Below, piece after piece: positions 8,794-55,082 of a stretch of 64,000 bases of DNA. The stretch covers positions 4,663-68,662 of the forward strand of contig CAZNUU010000004.1 in the NCBI GenBank assembly GCA_964576615.1, written 5' to 3'. Below the pieces are notes generated by a model, which saw only the letters and a list, made by a program, of their open reading frames with translations, was not told where the DNA came from and ran no database searches. How positions within the stretch are numbered: position 1 is the first letter of the stretch; every line of letters begins with the position of its first letter. The DNA comes from an uncultured Candidatus Saccharibacteria bacterium. Lineage in GTDB: Bacteria > Patescibacteriota > Minisyncoccia > Phycocordibacterales > DATDWN01. The translations under genes and the position numbers were made by a program.

Positions 8794-8816
8794 GAGTTAA
8801 TTTTATAACAGAATTT

Positions 8817-8916: not shown

Positions 8917-8920
8917 ATTG

Positions 8921-28244: not shown

Positions 28245-28422
28245 AAAATTAAGGAGTGAAACGACTATAATTTACTTAACCCAAGCACCACTTTATTGAT
28301 TTAAAAAAAGAAGTATGATAACTTTCAAGAGCGAAATTATATCGAGAAATGGCACTTACTTGGTGTATAAAGTGGTGCTGGGTAATGATTTTTATAGTCA
28401 CTACGCTCGTTAAAAATCAACC
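28245..28422 (+). promoter_or_regulatory. Structured leader element, copy 1. It has conserved 5' and 3' modules, a covarying long stem and a possible 32-codon uORF. It ends 9 nt upstream of the rplK ATG.
   Basis: The 5' module aaaattaaggagtgaaacgactataatttacttaaccca lies at 28245-28283. The stem arms cccaagcaccacttta at 28280-28296 and aaagtggtgctgggt at 28369-28383 pair. The 3' module tgatttttatagtcactacgctcgttaaaaatcaacc follows. The uORF runs 28315-28413. Confidence 0.55.
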
Positions 28423-28848
28423 ATGGCAAAGAAAGTAGTTAAAAAATTAAGACTTATTCTCACTGCAGGTAAGGCAACTCCTGCTCCTCCAGCTGGCCCT
28501 ATTTTAGGTCAGGCCGGGGTTAATATTGGAGAATTTGTTAAGCAGTTTAATGATGCATCTGCAAAAATGGCAGGGGATTTAACACCTGTTTCTGTTTCTG
28601 TTTACGACGATAGGTCTTTTACTTTCAAACTAAAAACTCCTCCAGCTTCCAATCTAATTTTAAAAGCTGCAAACAAAGATAAAGGTTCCGGTAAAAATAC
28701 AGTTTCAAAGGCAGGTAGTATTACCAAAGCCCAACTAAAAGCAATTGCGGAAAAGAAAATGCCAGACTTGAGTGCGAACGATATTGAAGCCGCAATGAAA
28801 ATTATTGCAGGTAGTGCTCGTTCGATGGGGATTGAGGTTAAGGGATAA
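28423..28848 (+). CDS. rplK: 50S ribosomal protein L11.
   Basis: [35 protein letters not shown] matches L11. Confidence 0.9.
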
Positions 28849-28865
28849 TACCGAAAAACCTAAAT

Positions 28866-28895
28866 GAAAAAAGACACTTATGTAAAGTGTCTTTT
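28866..28895 (+). terminator. Hairpin followed by a T-run, after rplK.
   Basis: aagacactt-atgtaa-agtgtctt, followed by ttttct. Confidence 0.55.
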
Positions 28896-28954
28896 TTCTT
28901 GTTTTCGTGATAGTACAAGGTCAGACGTTAACAGTTTTTTGAAAGGAAGAAACG

Positions 28955-29584
28955 ATGTCAGCCAAGAACATTCTGTCCAATGGGATTTGTTTGTCGGACC
29001 GATACATTCCGAACTACGACAAACTCCAAGAAGTACTGAGGGTGATGCGTTCTCTGGGACACACAATTTCGATGACCCAGGGCGTTTACGACCTCATCCA
29101 CCCCGGGCACACCCGGTATCTCGAGAAGGCGAAATCCTTCGGGGATATCTTGGTCGTGGCTGTGGATACGGATGAGTACACCCGACTGCGCAAGCAGAGG
29201 GAAAATGAGCGTCGGCCAGTTGTGCCGTTCGAAGAGAGGCTGGAACTTCTAGCCAACCTGCGCACAGTCGACATACTGACTGTGCGGGACGTAACGGAAC
29301 ACGAGAAGGATCCGACACACGTAATAAAGATCGTACAACCGGATGTTCTCGTCATGTCGCGATCAACGAAGGATGTGGGGAAAGATTGGTACGACGAGCT
29401 TCGCAAACTCTGCGGACGTCTCGAGGTACTCGAGCCGCAGTCAACGGGCTCAACAACCAAACAACTTCGTGATCTCATGATGGACGGGGCTTCTGGACTT
29501 GTCGATCACCTCCGTGAGACGATCGACAATTACTTCAGGGCGGCCGGCCGAGAGGTGACGTTTGGTAAAAGGAGGGATGGATGA
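28955..29584 (+). CDS. Cytidylyltransferase-like (HxGH) nucleotidyltransferase. It is GC-rich.
   Basis: GVYDLIHPGHTRYL ... ILVVAVDTDEYTRLRK ... RPVVPFEERLELLANLRTVD matches the TagD / RfaE-domain-II style nucleotidyltransferase fold. It is the first gene of a GC-rich island. Confidence 0.55.
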   Translation: MSAKNILSNGICLSDRYIPNYDKLQEVLRVMRSLGHTISMTQGVYDLIHPGHTRYLEKAKSFGDILVVAVDTDEYTRLRKQRENERRPVVPFEERLELLANLRTVDILTVRDVTEHEKDPTHVIKIVQPDVLVMSRSTKDVGKDWYDELRKLCGRLEVLEPQSTGSTTKQLRDLMMDGASGLVDHLRETIDNYFRAAGREVTFGKRRDG

Positions 29585-30441
29585 GGGCATTACTCGCCTA
29601 CGTTCCTGTCTTGAACCAACGTCACGTTGATTGGTTCAAGAGACATGAGGAGAGTCCGCTCTACCTCATACCGCAAGAGATGGCGGTGGGTTTCTTACCG
29701 CGACTCTCTCGAAATATTGCGGCTGTTTCTCCCGAGACGACCGCAACATCGATCAGATTCAACGGGTTGATACGAGAGGTGGCAATATTCAATCCCGAAA
29801 ACTGGGATCCGCGTTTGGCAAAAGACAGTGGGTGGAAAGATTGGGTTTTGCCAGACGAGGATATCTCACACGAAGTAGCTGAGAGGTACCTCAAACCGAT
29901 CGGAGCTTCGTGCCTCTTCGAAGAAATCTGGGCACGTTGGGATATGACCGCTGTACAAAAAATGCAGCCGGTCATTCCAGATGTGATAGTCAGCGAGTCC
30001 GAATTTGACCAAGTTCGGATGAGGTTAGCTGAGTGCCGAAAGACAGACAGCCCGGATTGGTGGCGGCAGATTGGTGCGGTATTGTTTGATGCGGGAGGTG
30101 AACCGATTTCATCTGCCTGCAACTTACACATGCCGAACGAATACGAGACGTATATCTTCGGAGATCCACGTCTCAATGTTGATGCCGGTCAGATCGGCAA
30201 GTACACCTCGCTTCACGCCGAGAAGGCTGTCATTGTTTTGGCGGCCAGGCTGGGTCGTCCGACGAACGGCGGATCGATGTATGTCACAGTTTTTCCTTGC
30301 GAGGACTGTGCCAGAGAGATCGCGTTCGCCGGGATTTCCAAAGTGTTCTTTCGTGAAGGGTACTCTGCTCTCAATGCTCGAGAAGTCTTTCGATCATGGG
30401 GAGTGGAAGTGGTCCAAGTCAAAGGCCCCGAGTCCGCGTAA
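29581..30441 (+). CDS. Two-domain protein. The N-terminal domain (~180 aa) is unknown. The C-terminal domain is a CMP/dCMP deaminase zinc-binding domain. It is GC-rich.
   Basis: The C-terminal SLHAEKAVIVLAARLG ... VFPCEDCAREIAFAGI gives the HAE...PCxxC deaminase signature. It overlaps the previous gene in an ATGA arrangement. Confidence 0.55.
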   Translation: MRALLAYVPVLNQRHVDWFKRHEESPLYLIPQEMAVGFLPRLSRNIAAVSPETTATSIRFNGLIREVAIFNPENWDPRLAKDSGWKDWVLPDEDISHEVAERYLKPIGASCLFEEIWARWDMTAVQKMQPVIPDVIVSESEFDQVRMRLAECRKTDSPDWWRQIGAVLFDAGGEPISSACNLHMPNEYETYIFGDPRLNVDAGQIGKYTSLHAEKAVIVLAARLGRPTNGGSMYVTVFPCEDCAREIAFAGISKVFFREGYSALNAREVFRSWGVEVVQVKGPESA

Positions 30442-30457
30442 GCGGCCGGGGCCTTGT

Positions 30458-30913
30458 CTATTTCTTCCAGCCGAGAGTCACCAGAAGACGGTTTTCGGCA
30501 GTCATGTCTTCTGTTTTTTTCTCGCCAACAAGAAAATGAAAGTGCAAGTGGTCTAGAGTGGCGCCTGTATACTCCATGTCCCCTGACCTTGCAAACATAG
30601 AGTACCCAGTTACTCCGAGATGGTCCTCGAGCCAAGCGAGAAGTTCAAAAAGTTCCACTATCTCTCTCGTGTCTAGCTCGCTAGCTCTCTTCATGTGCCT
30701 CTTTGGCACGAGCAAGTAATGGTGAACACTCCCCAGGTAGGGGAAGTTGTTGGGACAGACGTACCACCACTCCGTTTCATGGATAGTGGTCGGGAGTGTC
30801 TGCTCTTCTTCCGATCCACCTCGACAGAAGTAGCAGATACCAGCGTCAATCAATTTCTGCATTCTTCTTCTTTGTTCTGGATCACGCGAGTTACTCATAT
30901 TCACTTGAGACAT
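30458..30913 (-). CDS. HIT (histidine triad) family protein. It is GC-rich.
   Basis: The histidine triad LDHLHFHFLVG is present. A CYFC zinc-binding-like motif lies near the N-terminus. Confidence 0.65.
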   Translation of the reverse strand: MSQVNMSNSRDPEQRRRMQKLIDAGICYFCRGGSEEEQTLPTTIHETEWWYVCPNNFPYLGSVHHYLLVPKRHMKRASELDTREIVELFELLAWLEDHLGVTGYSMFARSGDMEYTGATLDHLHFHFLVGEKKTEDMTAENRLLVTLGWKK

Positions 30914-30998
30914 GCGTTATACCTCTTTCGGATTTCTAACATTTTAAATATAAAAAGCAAGTCGCCCCAGAATTTTGGGGCGACTCAGTGCAGAAGGA

Positions 30999-31908
30999 CT
31001 AGACCGTGACCGGGATGTCGTTCATCACTTCTCCCGGGTGATACTCACGCAGCTCGAAGTGATTGGGTCGAAAATCGAACAGGTCACTGACCCTCTCTCC
31101 TTCTTCGGTGAGATACATCGTCGGAAACTGTCGTGTCTCTCGCTCCACAATTTTCTTTGCAGCTTCCATCTGGTCTTCGTAGATGTGGCTGTTGTGGGTT
31201 GAGTGAACAAACAGGTGCGGCTCGTAACCAAGCACATGTCCGAGCATCATGGTGAGCGCTGCGTACTGGATGGTGTTCGACGGTACGCCGATGGGGAAAT
31301 CGGCAGACCTTTGATCCATACGCAAGCTGAGTCGCTTGTTCATCACGGTGATTTCAATGTCACCGTGACATGGTGCGACGACAACTTTCCTCTTACGGCC
31401 TAAGTGTTGGATCGCGTAGTGTGGAATCCAGGAGGTGATCTTGTGAGTGATCACATCGGGGTAGTCACGAATCTGCTCGATCACTTCTCGGAACTGATTA
31501 AAGGTCCCGCCGTCGGGTGTCGTGTACTGGAACGCGCCGCCATACGAACCCGGACCCATATCGTACGGCTCAAGGTCGAAGTCGGCACATTTCTCTGGTG
31601 TGGCCCATTTCTCCATCCACCAGTTGACTCCCCACTTCTCAGCGAGTTCACGTGCGTCGCGGACACCGTGAATGAAACCGAGAAGCTCGCCGATCGGTTT
31701 TCGCCAGAAGCCCACCTTTCGTTCGGTGAGTACTGGGAAGCCGTTCGAGAGGATGTAACTCATCGGTGCGAGGTCGAGGACAACGTAACGCCCGGTCCTC
31801 TGGAATGGATTCTTGGCGTACTCGCCGCTTGCCAGAATCTGTGCCAGGAAATTCTTGTACTGCGTATCCGGCGTACGAAGGCTATACGGTCGATAATTCG
31901 GATGCATG
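30999..31908 (-). CDS. thyA: Thymidylate synthase (ThyA family). It is GC-rich.
   Basis: The catalytic VVAPCHGDIEI (PCH motif) is present. QRSADFPIGVPSNTIQYAALT retains the Asn equivalent of E. coli N177, indicating dUMP specificity. The start was chosen at the Met preceded by AAAGGA (MHPNYR). Confidence 0.7.
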
Positions 31909-31964
31909 CTAGTCCTTTCAAAAAAGCAGATCTTTTGTGATACTAGCATCTAACTTTTTTAAGT

Positions 31965-31996
31965 CAAAGGAAGAGCCGCACCCACTGGTGCGGCCC
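31965..31996. terminator. GC-rich hairpin between folA and thyA. It shares its stem sequence with the hairpin at 23495-23525.
   Basis: agagccgcacc-cactg-gtgcggccc. Confidence 0.45.
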
Positions 31997-31999
31997 AAG

Positions 32000-32491
32000 T
32001 TATCGTCGGTACTCGACGACATTGAACGAGAATTCGTTCTCTTTGTCAGCATCATGTCGAAAGAGGGAGGAGCCGACGTATTCCCTGGGAATTTCTGGGA
32101 AAAATGTGTCACCTCCCTCGATCTCAGTTTCAACGTGGGTTACGACAAGTCGTTCCACGGCAGAAAGGAAGAGTGAGTAAATCTCTCTTCCACCCATCAC
32201 GAAGACTTCGCGTGTTCTTGAGAGTCTTTGAATCTCAGCGAGATGCAGACCCAACATGGTGTGGCAGCCTGCGGCCCTAAATGTCGGGTCGTTGGTCAGG
32301 ACGATGTTCTCTCTACCAGGTAGGGGTTTGTACGCCGCTGGGATTGACTTGTAGGTTTTTCTGCCCATGACAACCACATGACCCATGGTCGTGTTCTTGA
32401 AGTGATCCATGTCTGCCTTGAGGTGCCAAGGGATGTTGTCTTTCTTGCCAATCACACGATTGGCATCCATTGCCACGATAATACTGAGCAT
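32000..32491 (-). CDS. folA: Dihydrofolate reductase. It is GC-rich.
   Basis: The N-terminus MLSIIVAMDANRVIGKKDNIPWHLKADMDHFKNTTMGHVVVMGRKTY matches DHFR. AAGGAG lies 7 nt upstream of the chosen ATG (complement 32489-32491). Confidence 0.8.
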   Translation of the reverse strand: MLSIIVAMDANRVIGKKDNIPWHLKADMDHFKNTTMGHVVVMGRKTYKSIPAAYKPLPGRENIVLTNDPTFRAAGCHTMLGLHLAEIQRLSRTREVFVMGGREIYSLFLSAVERLVVTHVETEIEGGDTFFPEIPREYVGSSLFRHDADKENEFSFNVVEYRR

Positions 32492-32549
32492 GAGAGACTC
32501 CTTTTCTATCGCGATACTACTCTTTATAAAGGCTAGGGTCAATGTTAAG

Positions 32550-34235
32550 ATGAAAGAAATGAAAGATCTCTTAGGATCAGTAATTTTAGAAGAGTTGAAG
32601 GCTCGTGGTGTTGAAAATGCGATAGTGAATTTCGATTACCCAACTCACATGGAAATGGGCGATTTGTCTACTAATGTGGCCATGGTTTCTGCGGGGAAAT
32701 TGAAAACCAGCCCCATCGATTTAGCAAATGAGATAAAAGAGGCAATTCAAATTAAAGGAGTTAAACATATCAAAAGAGTTGATGTGATTAAACCAGGTTT
32801 TATCAATTTTTTCTTTGATGAACATTATTTCGCGAAAAATGTAGATGAGATTTTGAATAAAAAAGAGGAATTTGGGAAAAATAACAGATTTGGTGGAGAG
32901 AAGGTAACTATCGAATATACCGATCCGAATATTTTCAAAGAATTTCATATTGGACACCTAATGCCAAATGTTGTGGGGGAGTCTCTCTCTAGAATAATTG
33001 AAAATAGTGGGGCAAAAGTTAAGAGGGTAAATTATCAAAGTGACATTGGGCTTAATGTTGCAAAGGCGGTCTGGGCAGCCCAGAAAGGGATAAAAGTGGA
33101 AGAAGCCTATGCCTATGGTCATAAAGAGTATGAGGAAAATGAAGAAGCTAAAGGAGAAATTATAGAAATAAACAAAAAGATTTACGAAAAAAGTGATAGT
33201 GAGATAAATAAAATTTACGAAAAAGGGAGAAAGGAGTCACTCAATTATTTCGAGAAGATCTATAAATTGCTTGGTACAAAATTTGATCATTATTTCTTTG
33301 AAAGCGAAGTAGCGGAGTTTGGTAAAGAAACGGTGGAAAAAAATATTGGTAAGGTATTTGAAAAATCCGAAGGTGCCGTTGTCTTCAAAGGTGAAAAATT
33401 CGATAAATCACTTCATACTAGAGTTTTTATCAATAAAGAGAATTTGCCAACTTACGAAGCAAAGGAACTTGGCTTAGCTAAAATAAAATATGATGTTTCG
33501 CCGTATGATTTATCAATAATTGTTACAGGTGACGAGATAAATGAATATTTTAGAGTTTTGATTAAAGCTATGTTATTAGTTTTCCCAGATTTAGCAGCGA
33601 AAACAAAACACATTTCCCACGGAATGCTAAAACTTTCGACTGGCAAGATGTCGTCGAGGACCGGTAATGTTATCACAGCCGAAAGTTTAATTGCTGAGGT
33701 TAAGGAGAAAGTCTTACATAAGATGAAGAACCCTTCTTTATCTGAATATTCAGAAAATTTAGTTAAGGGATTCTCCGAGAGTGAACTCAGTGATATTGCC
33801 GAAGTTGTTTCTATTGGGGCAATAAAATACTCCATCCTTCATCAAGCCATTGGAGGAGATATAATTTTTGATTTCGATAAATCGATTTCATTTGTCGGAG
33901 ACTCTGGTCCCTACCTCCAGTATTCAACTGTTAGAGCTAATTCGATATTAAGAAAATCAGAAGGGAAATCAGGGGAGATGCCGAGTGATTGGGAAACAAC
34001 AAATCTGGAGAGGTTTTTGGAGAGGTTCCCAGGTGTTGTGGAAAAAGCAGGGAAGGAATATGCATCACACTACATTGCGACGTACCTCATTAATTTAGCT
34101 GGAGAATTTAATTCTTTTTATTCTGGTGAAAAGATTTCTGGTTCACCTTATCGTCTGGCTTTAACTGAAGCTTTTATCCAAGTAATGAATTCTGGGCTTT
34201 ATTTACTAGGTATCAAAGTTCCAGAAAGAATGTAA
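32550..34235 (+). CDS. argS: Arginine--tRNA ligase.
   Basis: The HIGH-type motif HIGHLMPNVVGESL is present. The C-terminal DALR domain with SGPYLQYSTVRANSILRK is present. The start was placed at 32550, because the longer ORF would overlap folA. Confidence 0.8.
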   Translation: MKEMKDLLGSVILEELKARGVENAIVNFDYPTHMEMGDLSTNVAMVSAGKLKTSPIDLANEIKEAIQIKGVKHIKRVDVIKPGFINFFFDEHYFAKNVDEILNKKEEFGKNNRFGGEKVTIEYTDPNIFKEFHIGHLMPNVVGESLSRIIENSGAKVKRVNYQSDIGLNVAKAVWAAQKGIKVEEAYAYGHKEYEENEEAKGEIIEINKKIYEKSDSEINKIYEKGRKESLNYFEKIYKLLGTKFDHYFFESEVAEFGKETVEKNIGKVFEKSEGAVVFKGEKFDKSLHTRVFINKENLPTYEAKELGLAKIKYDVSPYDLSIIVTGDEINEYFRVLIKAMLLVFPDLAAKTKHISHGMLKLSTGKMSSRTGNVITAESLIAEVKEKVLHKMKNPSLSEYSENLVKGFSESELSDIAEVVSIGAIKYSILHQAIGGDIIFDFDKSISFVGDSGPYLQYSTVRANSILRKSEGKSGEMPSDWETTNLERFLERFPGVVEKAGKEYASHYIATYLINLAGEFNSFYSGEKISGSPYRLALTEAFIQVMNSGLYLLGIKVPERM

Positions 34236-34261
34236 ATGTGTTATATTGAGGCTATCTAGGA

Positions 34262-34460
34262 GCCTAATCACCTCCGATTAATCGGGAAGAAGTTCGTCTG
34301 ATTTACGAATGTAGAACCCGACGGGTAAGCCCGTTATAGCAGTAATGAGAAACCCTAAGCCTAAACAAGATTACTTGTCGGCCGGGTAAAGCAAGGTGGT
34401 ACCACGGTTCGAGTTATCTCACCGTCCTTGCACGGAGTTTCCGTGTAAGGAATTTTTTAT
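34262..34460 (+). promoter_or_regulatory. Candidate T-box riboswitch leader upstream of ileS.
   Basis: The T-box-like sequence aagcaAGGTGGTACCaCGG lies at 34389-34408. It is followed by the terminator hairpin ccttgcacgg-agttt-ccgtgtaagg and aatttttt at 34427-34458. The leader is short, so stem I is not fully resolved. Confidence 0.5.
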
Positions 34461-34533
34461 TACCTGTCCCGTACTAAATTTTTGATTAGGTAATAAAAAA
34501 TTCATATGAACTGTTTAAAATTTTAGTACTGGG

Positions 34534-38498: not shown

Positions 38499-38655
38499 AA
38501 TCTATGGTATTTTTTGCGAATTTCTGCGTTACTCGCTCCGTTTGCTCCACGCGCAGTATTACTCATACAGCTTGGTCGCAATACTCGCTCGTGCCTTGAA
38601 CTTCACAAAAAATCCTCATAGCTTTCCTGATTACGGTTCATGATATAATTTAAAT

Positions 38656-40551
38656 ATGGATGAAGAAGAGAGTAGTATAGAGCGCCTGAAAAAATCGCTA
38701 TATACCAGGAATGAAAAACTTGTTCCTAAAGAAAAAAGGACACCAGTTTCTCCCCATGAAGTTGAGGCGCCGCCAGATTGGGGTGGTAAGAGGACATTTG
38801 ATTATTCTCCAGAGGTTGTAATAAAAAGAAATAATTCTTTTTTCAATAAATTTTTAATCGGCAGCCTTGTCTTTTTTACCCTATCTTTAGCTATTGCTCT
38901 CTTTATCTTTTTTGGTGGTCTTAACATGATTTCATCTAATAATCTCACTCTCGAGATTACTGCACCAAGTTCGGTTTCCTCTGGCGAAGAATTAGACATT
39001 GGTTTAACCATAACCAATCAAAATAGAACGGATCTGGAAGAAGCCTCCCTCATTATTGATTATCCGGAAGGTGCACAATCTGTGGGGGATAATAATAAAC
39101 CTTTGGTTCACGAAAAAATTGATCTTGGTACAATCGCCAAACATGACAAAACAAATTACACCGTGAGAGCGCTACTTTTTGGCGATAAAGACGTAACAAA
39201 GACGTTTAATTTCAGAATTGAGTACAAAGTTAAGGGTTCAAATGCCGTTTTCTCAAAAGAGAAATCCTTCGATGTTCTAATCGGTTCTTCACCGTTACTT
39301 CTCAATGTAAGCTACCCAACTCAGATTACTTCAGGCGATACAATTACTTTAAAATTAGAAATTACCTCAAACTCGTCTGTGCCCATTAGGAATGCTCTGG
39401 TGAAAATTGAATATCCATACGGGTTTACGTATAAAACTTCAAATGTGAAACCACTGCGCAGTAATTCTGTTTGGAACATAGGGGACTTGAAAAACGGGGA
39501 CAAGAAAACACTGACAGTTACAGGGGTTCTCATTGGCCAGAATCAAGAGGATAGATCATTTAGAATTTCTGCTGGAACGCCTGATTCAGGCTCGAACGAT
39601 TTTACTGAAAGCCTAGCTCAAACTATTGTTACTTTAGGTATAAGAAAATCGTTTTTCGATTTGGGAATAAACCTGGTTGGGGGGACTGTAGTTCATCCCA
39701 ATGAAAATATACAAATGCAAGTCATGTGGGAGAATACTTTACCGGACAGAGTCCTTAACAATGTTATTTTAGTTAAGCTCTCTGGAAATGCTATTGATCG
39801 GTCCCTCATAAGTGTTAATAATGGAGGGTTTTACAGATCTGGCGATGACACTATTACTTGGGACAAAAACGGCGATAATGATCTACAAGAACTATCTCCG
39901 GGGGATCATAATCAAGTGACATTTTCACTACATTCCCTACAGGATAATTTAAATAGGCTCGTAAAAAATCCCCATATCGATGTGAATGTGGTTATGACCG
40001 GAGACAGGTCTGGAACAAATGTAGAGAGCATATCTTCAGTTGCTGATTACTCAGTTAAAATTTCCTCCACTCTTACTCTGGTAGGCAAAACATACAGAAG
40101 TGTCGGTCCGTTCTCAAACACCGGCTCGATACCGCCTCGGGTTGATAAAGAAAGCACTTATACTATTTATTGGTCTGTTTCTAACACAACGAATGACTTA
40201 AAAAATACTCTGGTTACGGCAACTCTACCTCCGGGAGCAGTTTGGAAAAACGAGACTTCAGCTGGTACCGGCAGTATTTCATATGATCCAGATAGTAGGT
40301 TAGTAACTTGGAATATCGGGAATGTCTCAGCAGGAGTTGGGTATAGCTACCCTGTTCTAGAAGCATATTTTAAAGTTGGCCTAACGCCAAGTGCAAACCA
40401 AGTCGGCTCGCCGGCAGTGGTTATAAACGAATCTAAACTTGAGGCGCTAGATACATATAGTGGCAATACTTTAACAGAAGGTATAACTACTTTAACCACC
40501 CATTACGCTGATCCGGATTTTTCTACTGGTAAGGATAATGTGACAAAGTAA
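38656..40551 (+). CDS. Single-pass membrane protein with a large extracellular beta-sandwich repeat region (CARDB/DUF11-like). Function unknown.
   Basis: The topology is a cytoplasmic N-terminus, then the TM segment FLIGSLVFFTLSLAIALFIFF, then ~540 aa of repetitive extracellular sequence. Confidence 0.45.
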   Translation: MDEEESSIERLKKSLYTRNEKLVPKEKRTPVSPHEVEAPPDWGGKRTFDYSPEVVIKRNNSFFNKFLIGSLVFFTLSLAIALFIFFGGLNMISSNNLTLEITAPSSVSSGEELDIGLTITNQNRTDLEEASLIIDYPEGAQSVGDNNKPLVHEKIDLGTIAKHDKTNYTVRALLFGDKDVTKTFNFRIEYKVKGSNAVFSKEKSFDVLIGSSPLLLNVSYPTQITSGDTITLKLEITSNSSVPIRNALVKIEYPYGFTYKTSNVKPLRSNSVWNIGDLKNGDKKTLTVTGVLIGQNQEDRSFRISAGTPDSGSNDFTESLAQTIVTLGIRKSFFDLGINLVGGTVVHPNENIQMQVMWENTLPDRVLNNVILVKLSGNAIDRSLISVNNGGFYRSGDDTITWDKNGDNDLQELSPGDHNQVTFSLHSLQDNLNRLVKNPHIDVNVVMTGDRSGTNVESISSVADYSVKISSTLTLVGKTYRSVGPFSNTGSIPPRVDKESTYTIYWSVSNTTNDLKNTLVTATLPPGAVWKNETSAGTGSISYDPDSRLVTWNIGNVSAGVGYSYPVLEAYFKVGLTPSANQVGSPAVVINESKLEALDTYSGNTLTEGITTLTTHYADPDFSTGKDNVTK

Positions 40552-40574
40552 TATTAATTCTATATATTAAGAAA

Positions 40575-41885: not shown

Positions 41886-41926
41886 ATTACTTTGTTTTTG
41901 GTTTGGGGTTGTGCTATATTCAGCTG

Positions 41927-43195: not shown

Positions 43196-43244
43196 TTCAT
43201 TCTCCCTTGTGTTATTATGTTTTTAGTGTTATTTTTCTATTTCC

Positions 43245-44324
43245 ATGGAAATTAGAGAACAAACTATTCACATAAGTGCGGGTTCCATAGCAAAAGCCAT
43301 TTTTGTATTGCTACTTTTTGCTGCTCTATTTTTACTTAAAGATTTAGTTCTAGTTCTCTTAATGTCTATTGTTATTGCTTCAGCTATGGAGCCAGCAACC
43401 CAGTGGTTTACCAGAAGGGGCTTGCCCAGACTTTTTGCTGTCATCCTGATTTATTTCACTATTGCTATCTGTCTTATTGCAATTGTTTTCTTTTTGCTCA
43501 TTCCACTTCTTTCGGAAACCTCCGATTTCTTAAAAAATCTTCCATCTTATCTCAATGCCAGGGTGGTTGAGAGAACTATCGCAAATAGTGAGTTCTTATC
43601 TTCTCAACCATTCGTTGCCGGTCTTACAGACAGTATAAACATCTCGCATATAATTACTGAGGTAAATGATTTGATAGTTACAATTTCTTCAAATGCGTTC
43701 GGGGCAGTGACGACTATCTTCGGAGGAATTTTAAGTTTTATTTTGATGATCGTCATATCGTTTTATTTGTCCGTCGAGGACGATGGAGTAGGGAAGTTCC
43801 TTAAGGCGATCACACCTTTAAAGCATGAGAAGTACATGGTTGCCCTCTGGAAGAGATCCCAGAGGAAAATAGGTCTTTGGATGCAGGGGCAGTTTGTGTT
43901 GGCTATTATAATCGGAATGCTAGTTTATCTCGGTCTCCTAATCCTAAATGTGCCAAATGCCTTACTTTTGGCTGCTCTAGCTGCTGCATTTGAAATTATC
44001 CCTCTTTTTGGGCCTATTTTGGCCTCAATACCAGCAATTGGCATAGCTTTCTCAAGTGGGGGGTTGGCCCTGGCCTTACTTGTGGTAGGTCTTTACGTTA
44101 TCATCCATCAGTTCGAAAATCAGCTGATTTACCCCCTTGTGGTGAAGAAAGTTGTGGGGGTCTCTCCAGTAATTTCAATTGTGGCCTTAATTGCTGGCTT
44201 TAAATTAGCTGGGTTTTTAGGCTTAGTACTCTCTGTTCCAATTGCGACCGCTGTTATAGAATTTGTCAGTGACTTTGAAAAAGACAAAATAGAGAAATTT
44301 GAAAGGATGCAATCTGCCGAGTAA
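43245..44324 (+). CDS. AI-2E family transporter (PerM/UPF0118).
   Basis: An eight-TM profile. The C-terminal conserved region reads YVIIHQFENQLIYPLVVKKVVGVSPV. Confidence 0.7.
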   Translation: MEIREQTIHISAGSIAKAIFVLLLFAALFLLKDLVLVLLMSIVIASAMEPATQWFTRRGLPRLFAVILIYFTIAICLIAIVFFLLIPLLSETSDFLKNLPSYLNARVVERTIANSEFLSSQPFVAGLTDSINISHIITEVNDLIVTISSNAFGAVTTIFGGILSFILMIVISFYLSVEDDGVGKFLKAITPLKHEKYMVALWKRSQRKIGLWMQGQFVLAIIIGMLVYLGLLILNVPNALLLAALAAAFEIIPLFGPILASIPAIGIAFSSGGLALALLVVGLYVIIHQFENQLIYPLVVKKVVGVSPVISIVALIAGFKLAGFLGLVLSVPIATAVIEFVSDFEKDKIEKFERMQSAE

Positions 44325-44339
44325 TTTTCTCTGGATTAG

Positions 44340-45767
44340 ATGAAAAAGACTTTCTATATCACAACTACTTTGCCATATATAAATGCTGATCCGCATATCG
44401 GTTTTGCTATGGAGATAATTCAGGCTGATGTCATTAATCGAGCAAAAGTCCTTCAAGGTTTTGAGACTTTCTTCAATACTGGCAGTGACGAACACGGTCA
44501 AAAAATGTACAAGAAAGCTCTGGAGGCCAAGAAAGAACCTAAGGTTTACATGGACGAATTTGCAGAAAAATTTAGGAATCTTAAATCACTCTTAAATCTA
44601 AGTGAAAATTTAAAGTTCATTAGAACAACTGATGATTATCACAAAAAAGCGGCACAAGAATTTTGGAAGAGGTGTGAGGTGAACGGAGATATATATCAAA
44701 AAGAGTACAAGATTAAATATTGTGTCGGCTGCGAGCTTGAGAAAACAGATTCAGAACTTGTAGATGGAAAATGTCCTATTCATCCTGATAAGGAGCTGGA
44801 GTTAATTGATGAAATAAATTATTTTTTTAGGTTTTCAAAATACAGCGAAAAATTACTTGAGCTTTATAGAAATAATCCAGAATTTGTAAAACCAGATTAT
44901 AGATTAAACGAGATAAAAGCTTTAATTCGCAGAGGTTTGGAGGATTTTAGTGTTTCTCGGGTTGCAAAGAAAATGCCTTGGGGAGTTCCAGTTCCAGGAG
45001 ATGAGAGTCAAGTTATGTACGTGTGGTTCGATGCTTTAGTTAATTATGTCTCGACTATTGGTTGGCCAAATGACTTAGATAGTTTCAGTAAATGGTGGCC
45101 AGTCGTTCAATTCGCAGGTAAAGACCAAGTTCGTCAGCAGGCGGCAATGTGGCAGGCTATGCTTCTCTCAGCCGGGCTTACACCGTCGGAAAAAATTGTG
45201 ATCCATGGATTTATAAATATTGGTGGTGAAAAAATGTCAAAAAGTGTCGGTAATGTCGTCGGTCCAGTTGAGTTAGTTAACGAATACGGGGTTGATGCAC
45301 TTAGGTATTACCTGACTCGTGAAGTTAATCAGTTTGAGGATAGTGATTTCACGAAAGAGAGATTTAAGGAGGCCTATAATGCCAATCTGGCCAATGGCTT
45401 GGGGAACCTAGTCTCAAGAGTGATGAAAATGGCCCAGGACAACCTAGAAGAACCTGTTGAGGTGCCAGAATTTGAGAACATGGAGTCTTATTTCACTTTT
45501 CTAAATGCTTTTGATATCAATAAGGCGGTCAATTTCGTATGGGAAGAGATTAGTAAGATGGATAAATTCATTCAAGACAGTGAGCCCTTCAAGGTTGTTA
45601 AGGAAGACAAAGAAAAAGGTAAGAAAATGATCAAGGATTTGGTCACAAGGCTCTATAGTGTGGCTAGAATGTTAAATCCAATAATGCCTGAGACGTCAAA
45701 TAAGATAAAGGAGCTTATCAAATCAAATAAATCACCGGAAAAACCACTCTTTCTTCGCAAAGACTAA
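44340..45767 (+). CDS. metG: Methionine--tRNA ligase (short form).
   Basis: The HIGH-type motif PYINADPHIGFA is present. KMSKSVGN and the anticodon-binding domain are present. Confidence 0.9.
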   Translation: MKKTFYITTTLPYINADPHIGFAMEIIQADVINRAKVLQGFETFFNTGSDEHGQKMYKKALEAKKEPKVYMDEFAEKFRNLKSLLNLSENLKFIRTTDDYHKKAAQEFWKRCEVNGDIYQKEYKIKYCVGCELEKTDSELVDGKCPIHPDKELELIDEINYFFRFSKYSEKLLELYRNNPEFVKPDYRLNEIKALIRRGLEDFSVSRVAKKMPWGVPVPGDESQVMYVWFDALVNYVSTIGWPNDLDSFSKWWPVVQFAGKDQVRQQAAMWQAMLLSAGLTPSEKIVIHGFINIGGEKMSKSVGNVVGPVELVNEYGVDALRYYLTREVNQFEDSDFTKERFKEAYNANLANGLGNLVSRVMKMAQDNLEEPVEVPEFENMESYFTFLNAFDINKAVNFVWEEISKMDKFIQDSEPFKVVKEDKEKGKKMIKDLVTRLYSVARMLNPIMPETSNKIKELIKSNKSPEKPLFLRKD

Positions 45768-45768
45768 A

Positions 45769-46563
45769 ATGTACGAATATTTTGATATTCATTCTCACAT
45801 TTATTCTCCCGAATTCGACAATGATAGGGAAGAGGAAATTGAGAAGTTAAAGAAAGCAAAAATTGGGACGATAACTATTGGCGCAGATCTTGAGACATCC
45901 AAGCAGGCAATCGAACTTGCGGACAAACATGAGAATATTTTTGCGACTATCGGACAAATTCCAAGTGACCTAAATAACAATTCTGTCTTTGAAGAGAAGT
46001 TAGAGATCCTTGTCCAAAATAAAAAAGTAGTAGCTATAGGGGAATGTGGGCTGGATTATTTTCGAGATGAATCTCCAGATCTAAAAAATATTCAAAAAAC
46101 AATTTTTGAATATCACATTGATCTTGCCCTTTCATCGGAACTTCCACTTATGTTACATGTCCGGGATAAGCGCGGATCATTTTTGGCGTATAAGGATACT
46201 CTGGATGTTTTAGAGCATCATGCAAAATTAGCAGGTAGTCGTTTGCGAGGGAATGCGCATTTTTTTGCAGGTAATATGGATACTCTAAAAAGATTTCTTG
46301 CAATTGGTTTTACCGTTTCCTTTACTGGGGTTATCACTTTTACTCAGGACTATGATGAGCTTATCCAATTTGTACCTCTCAATATGATAATGGCGGAAAC
46401 CGATGCACCATTTGTTGCTCCAGTGCCATACAGAGGGAAGAGGAACTCGCCACTTTATGTAGCAGAAGTAGTAAAGAAAATTGCAGAGATAAGAAGTGAA
46501 CCACTCATGCATGTAAAAAAAGCTCTACTAGAGAATACTTTTTCAAGCTTCAAATTGGGCTAA
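45769..46563 (+). CDS. tatD: TatD-family metal-dependent hydrolase.
   Basis: The motifs FDIHSHI, GECGLDY and METDAPF are present. Confidence 0.85.
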   Translation: MYEYFDIHSHIYSPEFDNDREEEIEKLKKAKIGTITIGADLETSKQAIELADKHENIFATIGQIPSDLNNNSVFEEKLEILVQNKKVVAIGECGLDYFRDESPDLKNIQKTIFEYHIDLALSSELPLMLHVRDKRGSFLAYKDTLDVLEHHAKLAGSRLRGNAHFFAGNMDTLKRFLAIGFTVSFTGVITFTQDYDELIQFVPLNMIMAETDAPFVAPVPYRGKRNSPLYVAEVVKKIAEIRSEPLMHVKKALLENTFSSFKLG

Positions 46564-46595
46564 TTCGACCCTGGTTATCCACAGAGAGGGGAAGT

Positions 46596-46650
46596 ATGGA
46601 TGGTCAGGAGTGGTAACGATCAGTGTCACATTTCCATCCATTTTTTTTTG
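46596..46650 (+). terminator. Hairpin with a long loop, followed by T9.
   Basis: atggatgg-(27 nt)-ccatccat, followed by ttttttttt. Confidence 0.45.
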
Positions 46651-46979
46651 CTGATTTTTGCAATCTTTTATCTCAAAGTAATTCTCAAAGGAGGTCTAAA
46701 AATGGCCGTTTGAACTATATGCAACATTACTAAACCTTAATAGGTCTCATGAAAAAATATAGATATTTTTTTGATGGTCTTTTTTTGAAAATTTTTTCAG
46801 AATTCATAACTTTTGGACTCACTAGTTTAGTTTTTTTAATTAGATTTGAGCCAAAAAAATACCTAAATTTTCCAACATTTTCTTAGGGGGTCTTTTTACC
46901 AAAAAAAGGCTTATTTATAGGCAAATAAGTGATAAAATATATATAAATCGCTGTCCGTTGGACCGATATTAATTCACTC

Positions 46980-49900
46980 ATGATCGGCGATGCAGTAAAA
47001 AGAATAGTGAGAAAAGAATTTCCTACTGGAAAAACTGTTTTTTCTTCACTCTTAATTTCTCTGTTAGCCCTCTCGCCCCTGCCACTTTTTGCCTCTACTT
47101 ATCAAACTTTAGCCTACCAAGACGTACACAAAGACAGATACCTATTTGCCTTTAATTTGATTTCAAGTGTTCAGAATTCTCTTGCGAATTTAAGTGATGG
47201 CCAGATAGGAAGTAAGTTTTCAGATGAGGAAAATCAGTTAATTTCAGCGAGCCAGCAGAACGCAGATAAGTTAGGAGAATTAATTAATGAAAAAATAGAT
47301 TACTTGGGTTATTCAATAAACCAGGGTTCAGCAGATTTGGTGTACCAAGGAGAATTATTTTTTGAATATATTTTTGGTTTATCTTTGAATAATAATCCAA
47401 GCGGTAATTATAATTTCAAATCACCGATAAGTGGAGGAGTGTCTTTGAGCAATCTTTTTGAAGGCAAAGTGATTTCAAAGTTTAGAAATTTATTTGGTAA
47501 TGGGATCAATTTTCCAAAAGTTGCTGAAGCAAAAAAAATAGTAGAAAAGAAATCGGAACAGATTTCAGAAAAAACGAAAGCTGCCGAAGTTGCAGTTTCA
47601 AATAAACCAGAGCCAAAAGTTTTGGCTGCAAATATTTCTGTTCCAACAAGTGCAATAAAAAAAGTTATAAATAATTATTTGGCTCCAACTCCTAAACAGG
47701 ATGCGGCACTTAGTATTTTACCTAACTACGTAACAAAAAAAGATTTAGACAGTCGCTTGAAGTTATTATCTGAAGAATTTATTAAAAAAATATCGGCAAT
47801 TAACATTAATCCCGTAAGTGGTGACGATTTGGCAAACATATACAGGCAGATCGCTCTAACCCAGAGGATAGACCAAATTTCAAATGTAACCATCAATAAT
47901 TCCTACATTAGCAGCGGTAGTGTCGGGGGTGTCTCTGTGACCAACATTGTTTCAAATACTGGCTCAACAAGTATCCCGAATCTAGTAGTAAACAACACCT
48001 CTACCTCTACATTTGCCGGGGGGGTAGCTATTACAGGCGGATGTATAAGTGTAAATGGTACATGTGTGGGTGGCGGTGGGGGTAGTGGTACACCCGGAGG
48101 TAGTGATGGCCAGATCCAATTTAACAGTGGAGGGACATCATTCGGAGGGTCGTCCAGTTTGGTCTGGGATAATACTAACTTGAGGCTGGGTGTTGGTACA
48201 ACATCACCATACGCTCCACTTTCAGTTGTGGGGCAAATTGTTGCAGCCTATTTTACGGCAACAACAACATTGGTAAATACATTTCCTTATGCTTCAACCA
48301 CAGCTCTGTCGGTTTCCAGTGGACTGACATTGAATACTTCAACTAATGGTCCACTTCAAGCAGTTGGTGGAATTGTTTCAGCTACCACATCGATTGGTGT
48401 TGCGTACGGTGGTACCGGTTGGGCATCTCTTCAATCAAACGCAGTTCTTCTTGGAAATGGTTCAGGGAAAATTGCAACAACATCAGCTGGTACCGACGGG
48501 CAAGTCTTGGCATTAGTAAACGGGGTACCAACCTGGCAATCGACTACAACACTTTCTACAATTACTGGAACACTTACAGTAGGGAAGGGTGGTACTAATG
48601 CAACATCTTTCTCAGCTAACTCGATTGTGGTTTCTGATGCTGCCGGGACAACTCTAATTGCTACTGGGTCGAAACTAACCATTGGCTCACTCCTTTCTAC
48701 CACAACCGCAACATCCACATTTTCTGGAGCACTAGGAATTGGCACGACATCACCTTGGGCAGTATTTTCTGTTAACCCAACGGGAGGTACAGCAGCTGCA
48801 CAATTTGTAGTTGGATCCTCATCTGCAACAAATCTAATCGTGTTAAACTCGGGATTTGTTGGTATTTCCAGTACAACCCCGACATCTAGATTTGGAGTAA
48901 ACCCTCAAGCCGGAGATATAGTAGCTTTTGCAGTAGGTTCTTCAACTAAATCACTTCTCTCCATCTCGACTGAAGGTTTTGGCACCACAACCCTTGCTGG
49001 TCTTAACGTAAATGCTACAGCCACTTCTACATCAAATGTTGGCTGGAATATAAGTAATGGTTGTTATGCTATTTCTGGAACCTGTCTTTCTCTTTCTAAT
49101 TTGGCTGGAACACTTGCTGTCTCCAAGGGCGGAACAAATGCTACTTCTTTTGCAGCTAACTCCATCATTGTCTCTGATGCTGCTGGCACAACTCTCATTG
49201 CAACAACATCAAACAACTTCACACTCGGATCGTTTATTGCCACCTCCACCACACTTAACTCCTACTCACTTAATAACTGGACAGGTTTTGGCACAAGTAC
49301 GCCGGTATACGAAGTTACAATCTCATCTTCTACAGCGCCCCAGTTAGCTTTATCTGCAGGCTCGGGTATAGCGCAGTGGGTATTTAGAAACGGTGGGGGT
49401 GATCTTTATCTCGCGACTACAACTGTCGCGGGAACTGCTACTACCTCAATCACAGCTCTAACCATATCTGGTAGTGGCTTCGGTACCACAACAATCCGCG
49501 GCCTAACTATTGCTAACGGCCAAGCAACTTCTACCTCCAACGTCGGTTGGTCAATCACAAATGGTTGTTACGCTATAGGTACGACCTGTCTATCACTTTC
49601 ATCACTTACTGGAACACTCGCGGTTGCAAGTGGTGGTACTAACTCGACATCTTTTGCGGCTAACTCGATTATCACATCTGATGCCGCCGGAACTACACTC
49701 ATTGCAACAACATCAAACAACTTCACACTCGGATCATTTATTGCCACCTCCACCACACTTAACTCCTACTCACTTAATAACTGGATTGGTTTTGGTACCA
49801 CAACATCGAAGTACCCCTTAACAATTTCATCTTCGACGGCATCTCAACTTGCTCTCTCAGCTAGCTCTGGTTTTGCTCAGGTGGTGTTTAGAAATGATGG

Positions 49901-50801
49901 CACTAACTTTTACATTGCCACAACCACTACTGCTGGTACAGCTACCACTTCAACTCCGGCGATGCAGATAGCAATATCTACTGGTAATGTTGGTTTTGGT
50001 ACAACAACTTCTCTTGGGCCGCTCACCATGAACTCTGGTGCGTTTGTGACAACAGGAGGTACATGGACAAACGCGTCAGATCGAAACTTGAAGGAAAATT
50101 TTGTGGAGCTAGATATTAACGATATCTTAAACAAGATTATGCAGTTGCCGATAACACAGTGGAATTATAAATCTGAAAATATTAACATTCCTCACATCGG
50201 TCCAGTTGCTCAAGATTTCCATGCAATATTTGGTCTTGGTAATTCTGATACATCAATCTCGACCATTGACCCTGCCGGTGTAGCACTTGTGGGTATAAAA
50301 GCTTTATATAAAAAAATCGAAGACATTGGCAAATATTTTGCAGATAATGTTCTTAAAATAAACAAAGTCTCTACGGAAAACCTTTGTGTAAGTGATGATG
50401 AAGGTGAGACGTGTATCACTAGGGCAGAACTTCTAGCACTTCTTTCAAAATCAAAAGGGCAAAGCAGTAATACTCCTCCTCCAACGGCTTCGACAACTCT
50501 GTCTGTCCCGCAAGACACTTCCGCTCCAGTTATTACTATTTTGGGGGATAACCCAGCACAGATAGTTGTTGGCTCAACTTATTCCGACATGGGTGCCACA
50601 GTTTCTGATACCAACGCAGATGGAAGTGTAAATAATAATCTGGGTCTGCACTACACTGTAAATGGTCTAAGTACAGATTCTGTTTCGATTGATACGGCTA
50701 CTTCATCAAGTCACACCGTCGTATATTCGGCAGTAGATTCGTCAGGAAACTGGGGCTATGCAACTCGAACTGTAGAGGTAAAAGAAGCTGTTGCGCCGTA
50801 A
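46980..50801 (+). CDS. Giant secreted protein (1273 aa) resembling a tail fibre. It has a signal peptide, Thr/Ser/Gly-rich beta repeats, a C-terminal intramolecular-chaperone (peptidase S74-like) module, and a DUF5011-like Ig domain.
   Basis: The signal peptide is FSSLLISLLALSPLPLFAS. A ~170-aa unit is repeated (GTLAVSKGGTNATSFAANSI...). The chaperone-like block is LPITQWNYKSENINIPHIGPVAQDFHAIFG...VALVGIKALYKKIEDI. The C-terminal PVITILGDNPAQIVVGSTYSDMGATVSDTNADGS is DUF5011-like. Confidence 0.6.
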   Translation: MIGDAVKRIVRKEFPTGKTVFSSLLISLLALSPLPLFASTYQTLAYQDVHKDRYLFAFNLISSVQNSLANLSDGQIGSKFSDEENQLISASQQNADKLGELINEKIDYLGYSINQGSADLVYQGELFFEYIFGLSLNNNPSGNYNFKSPISGGVSLSNLFEGKVISKFRNLFGNGINFPKVAEAKKIVEKKSEQISEKTKAAEVAVSNKPEPKVLAANISVPTSAIKKVINNYLAPTPKQDAALSILPNYVTKKDLDSRLKLLSEEFIKKISAININPVSGDDLANIYRQIALTQRIDQISNVTINNSYISSGSVGGVSVTNIVSNTGSTSIPNLVVNNTSTSTFAGGVAITGGCISVNGTCVGGGGGSGTPGGSDGQIQFNSGGTSFGGSSSLVWDNTNLRLGVGTTSPYAPLSVVGQIVAAYFTATTTLVNTFPYASTTALSVSSGLTLNTSTNGPLQAVGGIVSATTSIGVAYGGTGWASLQSNAVLLGNGSGKIATTSAGTDGQVLALVNGVPTWQSTTTLSTITGTLTVGKGGTNATSFSANSIVVSDAAGTTLIATGSKLTIGSLLSTTTATSTFSGALGIGTTSPWAVFSVNPTGGTAAAQFVVGSSSATNLIVLNSGFVGISSTTPTSRFGVNPQAGDIVAFAVGSSTKSLLSISTEGFGTTTLAGLNVNATATSTSNVGWNISNGCYAISGTCLSLSNLAGTLAVSKGGTNATSFAANSIIVSDAAGTTLIATTSNNFTLGSFIATSTTLNSYSLNNWTGFGTSTPVYEVTISSSTAPQLALSAGSGIAQWVFRNGGGDLYLATTTVAGTATTSITALTISGSGFGTTTIRGLTIANGQATSTSNVGWSITNGCYAIGTTCLSLSSLTGTLAVASGGTNSTSFAANSIITSDAAGTTLIATTSNNFTLGSFIATSTTLNSYSLNNWIGFGTTTSKYPLTISSSTASQLALSASSGFAQVVFRNDGTNFYIATTTTAGTATTSTPAMQIAISTGNVGFGTTTSLGPLTMNSGAFVTTGGTWTNASDRNLKENFVELDINDILNKIMQLPITQWNYKSENINIPHIGPVAQDFHAIFGLGNSDTSISTIDPAGVALVGIKALYKKIEDIGKYFADNVLKINKVSTENLCVSDDEGETCITRAELLALLSKSKGQSSNTPPPTASTTLSVPQDTSAPVITILGDNPAQIVVGSTYSDMGATVSDTNADGSVNNNLGLHYTVNGLSTDSVSIDTATSSSHTVVYSAVDSSGNWGYATRTVEVKEAVAP
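48570..49800 (+). repeat. Intragenic tandem repeats with a period of about 510-540 nt. The last two units are almost identical over ~130 nt.
   Basis: The segment at 49141-49270 is near-identical to the segment at 49651-49780 (...tcattgcaacaacatcaaacaacttcacactcggatc...). Mirror ORFs appear on the minus strand at 49064-49252 and 49568-49756. Confidence 0.75.
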
Positions 50802-50826
50802 ATCGTCCTATGGTAGTCTTTTTGGA

Positions 50827-51354
50827 ATGGAAGGGGATTTTAACAAGGAAAAACAAGGCAAAAATGACGAGGTTCTAGTTTATGAAGTCTCGTATATTCT
50901 CCTACCTCATATAAATTCCGGGGATGTTCCAGCAAAAGCGGATTCACTAAAGAACGAAATAATCTCCCTGGGCGGCGAGATTATTTCAGGAGAGAACCCA
51001 GTCCTAATTGAACTGTCTTATCCAATGGTCAAAACCGTTGGTGCTACTCGTAATAAAGTTACATCTGGTTATTTTGGCTGGCTAAAGTTTGAACTAAAAA
51101 GAGGGGAGGAGGCGGGGATATTAAAGGTGAAGAAAATGTTAGATGGCAATAGTGATATTGTTCGATTTCTCCTAATAAACACTGTTAGAGAAAACACACT
51201 GCTTAACGGCAAGATGGTTTTAGTAAATGAGGAGAAAGAAAAGAAATCTCCAGACGAAGAGGTGCCTTATGAAGGCGAAAGTACAGAAGTAGTTGAAGAG
51301 AAAAGTACAACCGAAGATATTGATAAGAGTATTGATGATTTAGTAATTGTTTAG
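50827..51354 (+). CDS. rpsF: 30S ribosomal protein S6, with a C-terminal acidic extension.
   Basis: YEVSYILLPHINSGDVPAKADSLKNEI...LIELSYPM is S6-like. The start was taken at MEGDF, because the longer ORF overlaps the upstream gene. Confidence 0.7.
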   Translation: MEGDFNKEKQGKNDEVLVYEVSYILLPHINSGDVPAKADSLKNEIISLGGEIISGENPVLIELSYPMVKTVGATRNKVTSGYFGWLKFELKRGEEAGILKVKKMLDGNSDIVRFLLINTVRENTLLNGKMVLVNEEKEKKSPDEEVPYEGESTEVVEEKSTTEDIDKSIDDLVIV

Positions 51355-51571
51355 AAAATTAAGGAGTGAAACGACTATAATTTACTTAACCCAGCCCCAC
51401 TTTTGGTAAAAAATGAAACAAAATATAAAACAAACAAATAGTGAAAAAATCTCTAGCGACGCGCGAAGGAATACTTCGGCCCTATTCGGGCCAGCGTCGA
51501 GGAATAGTTTACTAGCAAAAGTGGGGCTGGGTGAAGATTTTTATAATCGCTTCGCTCATTAAAAATCAATC
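51355..51571 (+). promoter_or_regulatory. Structured leader element, copy 2. It has the same 5' and 3' modules as 28245-28422, and a possible 49-codon uORF at 51413-51562. It ends 9 nt upstream of the ssb ATG.
   Basis: The 5' module aaaattaaggagtgaaacgactataatttacttaaccca lies at 51355-51393. The covarying arms cccagccccactttt and aaaagtggggctggg pair. The 3' module agatttttataatcgcttcgctcattaaaaatcaatc follows. Confidence 0.55.
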
Positions 51572-54972: not shown

Positions 54973-55060
54973 AATTTTTCTGGCGCCTTGGGAGCGCGAC
55001 GGCGCGAGCACGAGGAATTTTCTAGCAAGAAAATATCCGTGCGCAAGAAAAATTATGGGG
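54969..55060 (-). repeat. Copy 4 of the conserved-core element, in reverse orientation. It is flanked by an 18-bp inverted repeat with 1 mismatch. The recA start codon lies inside the element end.
   Basis: ccataatttttctggcgc lies at 54969-54986 and gcgcaagaaaaattatgg at 55043-55060. The core is the reverse complement of acggatattttcttgctagaaaattcctcgtgctcgcgccgtcgcgctcccaag. Confidence 0.7.
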
Positions 55061-55082
55061 AGAAAGAAATCCGATTAAACTT

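Follow-up and report, generated by a model that had tools for sequence, protein, structure and literature searches.

Intergenic hairpin segments ahead of rplK and ssb in a Saccharibacteria genome: probable reduced copies of a GIY-YIG palindromic element family of Patescibacteria

Neisseria Correia and enterobacterial ERIC elements are miniature inverted-repeat transposable elements (MITEs) that are co-transcribed with neighbouring genes, REP/BIME/REPIN elements are mobilised by RAYT transposases, and the seg and mob genes of phage T4 are free-standing GIY-YIG homing endonuclease cassettes. Rickettsia palindromic elements (RPEs) form a further described group, for which we know of no associated nuclease gene. 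Here, two structured segments in a 64-kb stretch of an uncultured Candidatus Saccharibacteria genome (contig CAZNUU010000004.1; the whole stretch is referred to as the window) are compared with these systems; copy 1 lies between nusG and rplK, and copy 2 between rpsF and ssb. Judged from sequence comparison, the two segments are probably MITE-like derivatives, devoid of an open reading frame (ORF), of a selfish GIY-YIG palindromic element family that occurs across Patescibacteria.

The segments share with Correia and ERIC elements a size of 100-220 nucleotides (nt), the lack of an ORF, terminal inverted repeats, an intergenic position beside genes, a predicted long RNA hairpin and a promoter-like -10 sequence at an end. 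They differ in showing no clear TA or other target duplication, in standing a fixed 9 nt from an ATG, in having as ends locally folded, capped hairpins whose 22-nt core (termed M) is conserved across very different genomes, and in being partnered by a GIY-YIG nuclease gene instead of a transposase gene. The RPEs are likewise palindromic, selfish and intergenic, lie beside RNA genes and insert in frame as peptide loops; the RPE-like in-frame cases found here, in a pirin gene and a citrate-synthase-like gene, belong to a sister form and not to the window copies, and the host lineage is another one. As with T4 seg and mob, a small GIY-YIG ORF occurs sporadically between conserved genes and is patchy among relatives, whereas the ORF described here codes for the catalytic domain only, no DNA-binding domain being recognisable, lies inside a long inverted repeat that has M hairpins on either side, and has left ORF-less derivatives. 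In REP, BIME and REPIN elements, two inverted small hairpin units also form a larger hairpin, in intergenic and multi-copy fashion; in contrast, the gene here is of the GIY-YIG type (13 loci) and not a Y1 transposase, although no RAYT-specific search was made, and it is the apex that is conserved and the local stems that vary, the reverse of REPs. The element thus differs from Correia/ERIC elements, RPEs and GIY-YIG cassettes in its capped-hairpin end, nested nuclease, stop-to-start placement and host lineage. A full-text literature search of incomplete coverage returned no description of it, so an earlier description is possible.

A sequence-only reading of the window had described a duplicated structured leader that begins right after the upstream stop codons and ends in related 3' modules directly upstream of rplK and ssb. 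The duplication was confirmed: the 39-mer that opens both segments has exactly two matches in the window, at 28245 and 51355 (expected 0), and the identity between the copies actually spans 44 nt (28240-28283 = 51350-51393), a tract that takes in the TTTAG from which both upstream stop codons derive. The 3' modules (28369-28425 and 51518-51574) are indeed related, at 86% identity over 57 nt, and, as had been noted, a TAA stands exactly 9 nt ahead of the ATG in both copies. Copy 1 is 178 nt and copy 2 is 217 nt long. Pfam assigned the flanking genes to NusG and L11 (copy 1) and to S6 and SSB (copy 2), the S6 score of 26.5 bits lying slightly below the 27-bit cutoff; the S18 gene comes after the SSB gene. 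Across the family described below, the usual order is a stop codon, a hairpin P1 carrying M, a variable hairpin P2, a hairpin P3 carrying the reverse complement of M (anti-M), 9 nt and the ATG. The two window copies are divided accordingly:

28240..28248, + strand: copy 1, 5' strand of P1, TTTAGAAAA, holding the nusG stop TAG (28242-28244); same in both copies
28249..28270, + strand: copy 1, core M, TTAAGGAGTGAAACGACTATAA, left terminal inverted repeat and apex of P1
28271..28278, + strand: copy 1, 3' strand of P1, TTTACTTA, from flank pairing across the family
28279..28296, + strand: copy 1, 5' arm of P2, ACCCAAGCACCACTTTAT, from predicted folds and P2 arm comparison
28297..28366, + strand: copy 1, P2 interior, unique sequence; site of the GIY-YIG ORF in related elements
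28367..28383, + strand: copy 1, 3' arm of P2, ATAAAGTGGTGCTGGGT, from the predicted fold and P2 arm comparison
28383..28391, + strand: copy 1, 5' strand of P3, TAATGATTT, from P3 covariation
28392..28413, - strand: copy 1, anti-M, read on the - strand as TTAACGAGCGTAGTGACTATAA, right terminal inverted repeat and apex of P3
28414..28425, + strand: copy 1, 3' strand of P3, AAATCAACC, then the rplK ATG (28423-28425; L11 by Pfam)
51350..51358, + strand: copy 2, 5' strand of P1, TTTAGAAAA, holding the rpsF stop TAG (51352-51354)
51359..51380, + strand: copy 2, core M, same sequence as in copy 1, from motif scans
51381..51388, + strand: copy 2, 3' strand of P1, TTTACTTA, from family flank pairing
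51389..51406, + strand: copy 2, 5' arm of P2, ACCCAGCCCCACTTTTGG, from folds and P2 arm comparison
51407..51515, + strand: copy 2, P2 interior, unique, with GC-rich sub-hairpins in the predicted fold
51516..51532, + strand: copy 2, 3' arm of P2, CAAAAGTGGGGCTGGGT, from the fold and P2 arm comparison
51532..51540, + strand: copy 2, 5' strand of P3, TGAAGATTT, from P3 covariation
51541..51562, - strand: copy 2, anti-M, read on the - strand as TTAATGAGCGAAGCGATTATAA, from motif scans
51563..51574, + strand: copy 2, 3' strand of P3, AAATCAATC, then the ssb ATG (51572-51574; SSB by Pfam)

The 5' module is repeated in inverted form by the 3' module, with 55-nt arms that are 78% complementary, a relation that the sequence-only reading had missed while correctly describing the segments as duplicated and structured. 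A degenerate 25-mer (TTAANGAGYGWARYGAYTATAAWWW) has the four arms as its only matches in the window, and a position-weight-matrix scan of the 64 kb found no further or weaker copies of M. On either strand, each segment is predicted to fold as a single long hairpin (-50.6 and -78.0 kcal/mol for copies 1 and 2 on the + strand, -44.7 and -80.3 kcal/mol on the - strand; z-scores -4.5 to -8.2). Predicted stability favours this long-hairpin state by about 13-18 kcal/mol over the three modules folded separately, and in it the ATG and the 9 nt before it are predicted to be single-stranded. The extra GC-rich hairpins proposed for the interior of copy 2 are present in its predicted fold. A long stem kept by covariation between the copies had also been proposed; it amounts to one compensated pair (A/T versus C/G), beyond which there is only a 1-nt bulge.

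A leader peptide encoded by a small upstream ORF (uORF), an attenuator, or a ribosomal-protein autoregulatory leader (a mimic of the L1/L11- or S6:S18-binding site) would offer an operon-specific account of the same segments. ORFs of 32 codons in copy 1 and 49 codons in copy 2 do exist in the proposed frame and end 9 nt before the ATG. Across the family, however, that frame lacks an ATG in 25 of 34 members and stays open for a median of 18 codons; moreover, the element precedes dozens of unrelated genes. The peptide tail shared by the copies, DFY(S/N)R(F/Y), is explained by translation of the conserved anti-M nucleotides, and a uORF or attenuation role was not borne out. Rfam searches likewise recovered no family for the element: at the gathering score only tRNAs were found, and at E values up to 1 the sole match was a spurious microRNA-precursor hit of 18 bits against a gathering score of 211 bits. 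We regard this group of explanations as highly improbable. Several further identities were rejected. A consensus scan called an intrinsic terminator in neither copy, the T run (GATTTTTAT) lying 3-4 nt past P2 and the P2 loop being long; a K-turn or CsrA-site reading of M (tandem G.A, GGA) was dropped, as there is no 3-nt bulge and position 5 is variable; a hammerhead-like reading of GGGUGAUGA was dropped because those positions vary; and a DNA-uptake sequence was dismissed since the density, 4 motifs in 64 kb, is far too low.

The degenerate 25-mer was then scanned against one genome per species, and the figures for M and its composites are drawn from the matches listed. The 22-nt core M (TTAAGGAGYGWARYGAYTATAA) was found in at least 119 genome stretches of species-representative genomes, and the titles among the matches listed are nearly all of the Patescibacteria group (Paceibacterota, Nomurabacteria, Vogelbacteria, Saccharibacteria). 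A viral collection of 2.9 million contigs contained one match to the M pattern, and phage carriage was rejected on the basis of this single match. The core is near-invariant in 144 unique instances, from which the family consensus was taken, and a stem is formed by its flanks in every case, with Watson-Crick pairing of 99-77% over the pairs -1/+1 to -5/+5 and exchanges of A-T for T-A. The flank TTTAGAAAA recurs in many other genomes. A mini-stem within M also covaries, at positions 9/13 (C-G 97, T-A 31, T-G 13, C-A 1) and 8/14 (G-C 132, G-T 8, A-T 3). The upstream stop codon lies at most 13 nt from M or within it across the family; P2 is an ACCC...GGGT hairpin of variable sequence and length; and the P3 apex is anti-M or a degenerate, CTCGYTAA-type sequence. 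The 5' M is often degenerate or missing where P2 and P3 are kept. Short tandem arrays of M-containing units with a period of 43-165 nt were observed at loci L057, L054, L073, L119, L078, L020, L096 and L028.

Fuller copies of the element carry, in the P2 loop, an ORF of 84-97 amino acids encoding a GIY-YIG protein (PF01541). Using a hidden Markov model built from ORFs adjoining M and run on M-selected loci, GIY-YIG proteins were detected in 12 of 119 such loci among the matches listed, and in 8 of these 12 the ORF adjoins or sits within an M element. At three loci (L007, L140, L162) it fills the P2 loop at nusG-rplK, the locus of window copy 1, while other GIY-YIG elements precede secE (L120) and rpmI (L064). 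In all five of these, and in L027 and L082, the ORF occupies the P2 loop with M upstream and co-oriented. The P2 arms of GIY-YIG copies (ACCCCGCCCTCACTT / AAGTGAGGGCGGGGT) resemble those of the window (ACCCAGCCCCACTTT / AAAGTGGGGCTGGGT), and the full copies have the same ends as the window copies, from both of which the ORF is missing; the GIY-YIG protein is not of a known transposase type. A search from the nuclease side recovered homologues 65-99% identical across many lineages. Both homologue loci that were inspected share the architecture, one directly upstream of rpsS (P0032) and the other before rplJ (P0056), where an extra ORF-less copy also precedes rplJ. At two loci (L006, 3362-3664; L055, 558-839), a GIY-YIG ORF has no nearby M and still lies within a long inverted repeat (CGCCCAGACACTAAC / GTTAGTGTCTGGGCG), which suggests that the P2 repeat and the GIY-YIG ORF form the core unit.

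The position of M relative to the nuclease gene bears on a second alternative, that of a portable promoter-leader: transcription would start from its left end and run into P2 and the gene downstream, or, in full copies, into the GIY-YIG ORF. M is upstream of and co-oriented with the GIY-YIG gene in 13 of 17 loci, 23-46 nt ahead of its ATG; in both window copies TAGAAA-18-TATAAT scores 10/12 as a sigma-70-type promoter, and relatives have a native rplK promoter-like sequence at the same position. However, promoter-like matches are not commoner in these regions than in shuffled sequences, and M also occurs inside coding sequences and, reversed, beside start codons. A promoter would moreover leave unexplained the conservation of the 17-nt spacer, the flanking covarying stems and the single-strand-type covariation inside M. 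As the main function of the element a promoter appears improbable to us; it might be an added property.

Several observations point to mobility. Among 80 metagenomic relatives of the window's L11, the nusG-rplK junction is filled in 6, and the others have short native spacers. Within a genome the P2 arms are similar, and between genomes they differ (window, L064, L072, L097); P2 mismatches show no RNA strand bias, with 9 of G.U type in the sense and 8 in the antisense direction and 24 transversions. Several copies occur per locus in L064, L072 and L097, and two in the window. The short-read contigs that encode the L11 and SSB proteins in identical form each begin within M. The segments have the features of MITEs in being short and non-coding, with M/anti-M terminal inverted repeats and no conserved ORF, in occurring as multiple copies at unrelated sites, and in being present or absent at orthologous sites. 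A TTAA target duplication was considered and rejected, since TTAA is part of the inverted repeat and the right flank AAATCAAYC is constant across genes.

In relatives that do not carry the element (L120, L123, L124, L132, L134, L137-L139, L152, L181), the rplK ATG is preceded at 15-40 nt by a small leader hairpin whose loop has the sequence GCTTCT; this hairpin is missing where the element is present and may be the native L11-operon leader. A third palindromic element (agacttccaaatctggc...) occupies nusG-rplK in L120, L121 and L126, the closest relatives of the window L11.

A sister form consists of the M hairpin followed by a short GC hairpin (P1-P2 type). It sits directly after tRNA-Ser and tRNA-Gln, and also in frame within a pirin gene, as a 66-nt insertion in the DNA alignment (22 amino acids) that is present in 4 of 8 close orthologs and absent from a 90%-identical protein; a further in-frame case was found in a citrate-synthase-like gene. 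The junctions of the sister form show a 4-6 nt CGCC/CGCT-like direct repeat. At five loci (L063, L070, L071, L101, L013) an M hairpin lies 55-90 nt downstream of tRNA-Arg, its long stems being inverted and direct copies of the tRNA-Arg 3' end, an arrangement that resembles an integration scar or a tRNA-derived element. A tRNA with M in its variable arm was rejected: ARAGORN finds none, and the sequences flanking M are tRNA-3'-end-like inverted copies.

A small mobile structured element had been among the candidate roles proposed from the sequence, and it is this one that gained support, from the family-wide spread, the presence/absence at orthologous sites, the in-frame insertions and the nuclease in fuller copies. 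A promoter-leader or translational-coupling role, also proposed there, may exist besides. A full element comprises a left-end hairpin capped by M, a long inverted repeat P2 with the GIY-YIG gene in its loop and, where a host gene lies downstream, a right-end P3 capped by anti-M, 9 nt ahead of that gene's ATG; the window copies have probably lost the nuclease gene and kept the ends and P2 arms. We hypothesize that the GIY-YIG protein would cut DNA and that repair-mediated copying would spread the element, a process akin to homing, with intergenic sites between strongly conserved and strongly transcribed genes as its targets. The element is presumably co-transcribed with the operon, and its insertion may be tolerated because the RNA folds away as a hairpin; the M:anti-M duplex is a plausible RNase III substrate, cleavage of which would split the message.

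Several observations weigh against a purely selfish origin by insertion. In 34 unique family members the distance from anti-M to the ATG is exactly 9 nt. Pairing in P3 amounts to 94.7%, and five of its pairs show double changes; 0 of 500 shuffles reach these values, and slid controls give 35-50% pairing. This stem covaries though it is unused in the long-hairpin state. In the mini-stem of M, G.U pairs number 21 and A.C pairs 1 when read on the M-sense strand, the only one that the wobbles fit, even where M runs antisense to its neighbouring gene. Ribosomal proteins are encoded by at least 15 of the 39 downstream genes, and most of the downstream genes belong to this or other information-processing classes. 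Pfam annotation of the 39 distinct downstream proteins gave L20 (3), L16 (2), S19 (2), S12 (2) and SecE (2), and further S7, L14, S8, S10, RRF, RpoC, DnaB, SSB and SerRS; by N-terminal sequence, other downstream genes encode L2, L3, L5, L10, L13, L17, L24, L31, L33, L35 and S4, as well as EF-P, NusG and, in another genome, SSB. The 9-nt spacing and the ribosomal-gene share exceed what random insertion would give, and they point to selection or function. In the window itself, a six-frame search of both interiors found no GIY-YIG remnant (best E 0.012, 4.5 bits). For the stop-to-start composite no clear target-site duplication could be defined, and filled nusG-rplK junctions lack the native leader hairpin of rplK, so that replacement of the whole spacer by recombination in conserved flanking genes, and not simple insertion, is possible. 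Together, the spacing, the gene-class bias, the covarying P3 and the strand-specific covariation of M indicate that at least some of the element is under constraint as a single strand in folded form, and that insertions survive only where downstream expression is preserved.

The same observations could instead reflect a host-beneficial intercistronic RNA device, in which the P1-P2-P3 fold joins the upstream stop and the downstream ATG at the base of the structure, allowing termination-reinitiation or a cleavage "punctuation" that yields short-leader mRNAs; M would bind a conserved factor, and the GIY-YIG gene would be a secondary parasite. Besides the 9-nt spacing and the close upstream stops, the P3 covariation and the RNA-like covariation of M would follow naturally from such a device, as would a set of downstream genes dominated by ribosomal-protein genes, rpoC, secE, frr, ssb, dnaB and similar genes. 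Most window genes are without a Shine-Dalgarno sequence and many look leaderless, and M hairpins follow tRNA 3' ends as a processing signal might. A device of this kind is, however, at odds with the presence of the element at only 6 of 80 orthologous nusG-rplK junctions, with its in-frame occurrences in coding sequences, and with P2 stems that are homogeneous within and divergent between genomes and have no G.U excess. In addition, the mini-stem wobbles in 3' modules fit the strand antisense to the gene, and P2-P3 often persists next to a degenerate 5' M or with none at all. We therefore consider a host RNA device rather unlikely and rank it below the selfish GIY-YIG element and above the portable promoter. 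Another wording of the functional case is that the element, while not only selfish DNA, has been domesticated as a Shine-Dalgarno-independent expression device of Patescibacteria ribosomal-protein operons. M/anti-M and P3 would then act as an RNA switch or processing signal through which a conserved factor (ribosome, RNase III or another protein) couples or punctuates cistrons, with the GIY-YIG protein as vehicle or parasite; this, too, we hold to be unlikely, and slightly more so.

Other features of the window were recorded alongside the two segments. A Shine-Dalgarno sequence is missing from most of its genes, and in many a TATAAT-like hexamer precedes the ATG by 6-8 nt (for example the gene starts at 38656, 57837, 23954, 11072 and 40575), a sign that leaderless transcripts may be widespread. 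Another palindromic repeat family, unrelated to the first and with a GC-rich core (GAGCACGACGGCGCGAGCACGAGG), is present at 4174-4289, 8816-8917, 54971-55067 and 24491-24539; it fills whole spacers, as between the stop at 4174 and the ATG at 4290, and has predicted folding energies of -42 to -54 kcal/mol. The gene that follows rplK (28849-29584) is cytidylyltransferase-like and not rplA, so L1 may be absent or encoded elsewhere. An ORF of 1273 amino acids (46980-50801) contains direct repeats within 48550-49822, with a spacing of 504/540 nt and 76% identity, which point to a repetitive product, probably located at the surface.

If the selfish reading is correct, the family would give the streamlined Patescibacteria genomes a selfish element that spans the lineage and had not been described before, and it would offer a testable role for the small stand-alone GIY-YIG proteins, restricted to the catalytic domain, that are common in them. 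It would also account for long structured spacers in ribosomal-protein operons and for short peptide insertions in proteins, and the repeat breaks short-read assemblies at the ribosomal-protein loci used for phylogeny and binning. The RNA-level reading, if true, would be relevant to the translation of cistrons in genomes where Shine-Dalgarno sites are largely missing.

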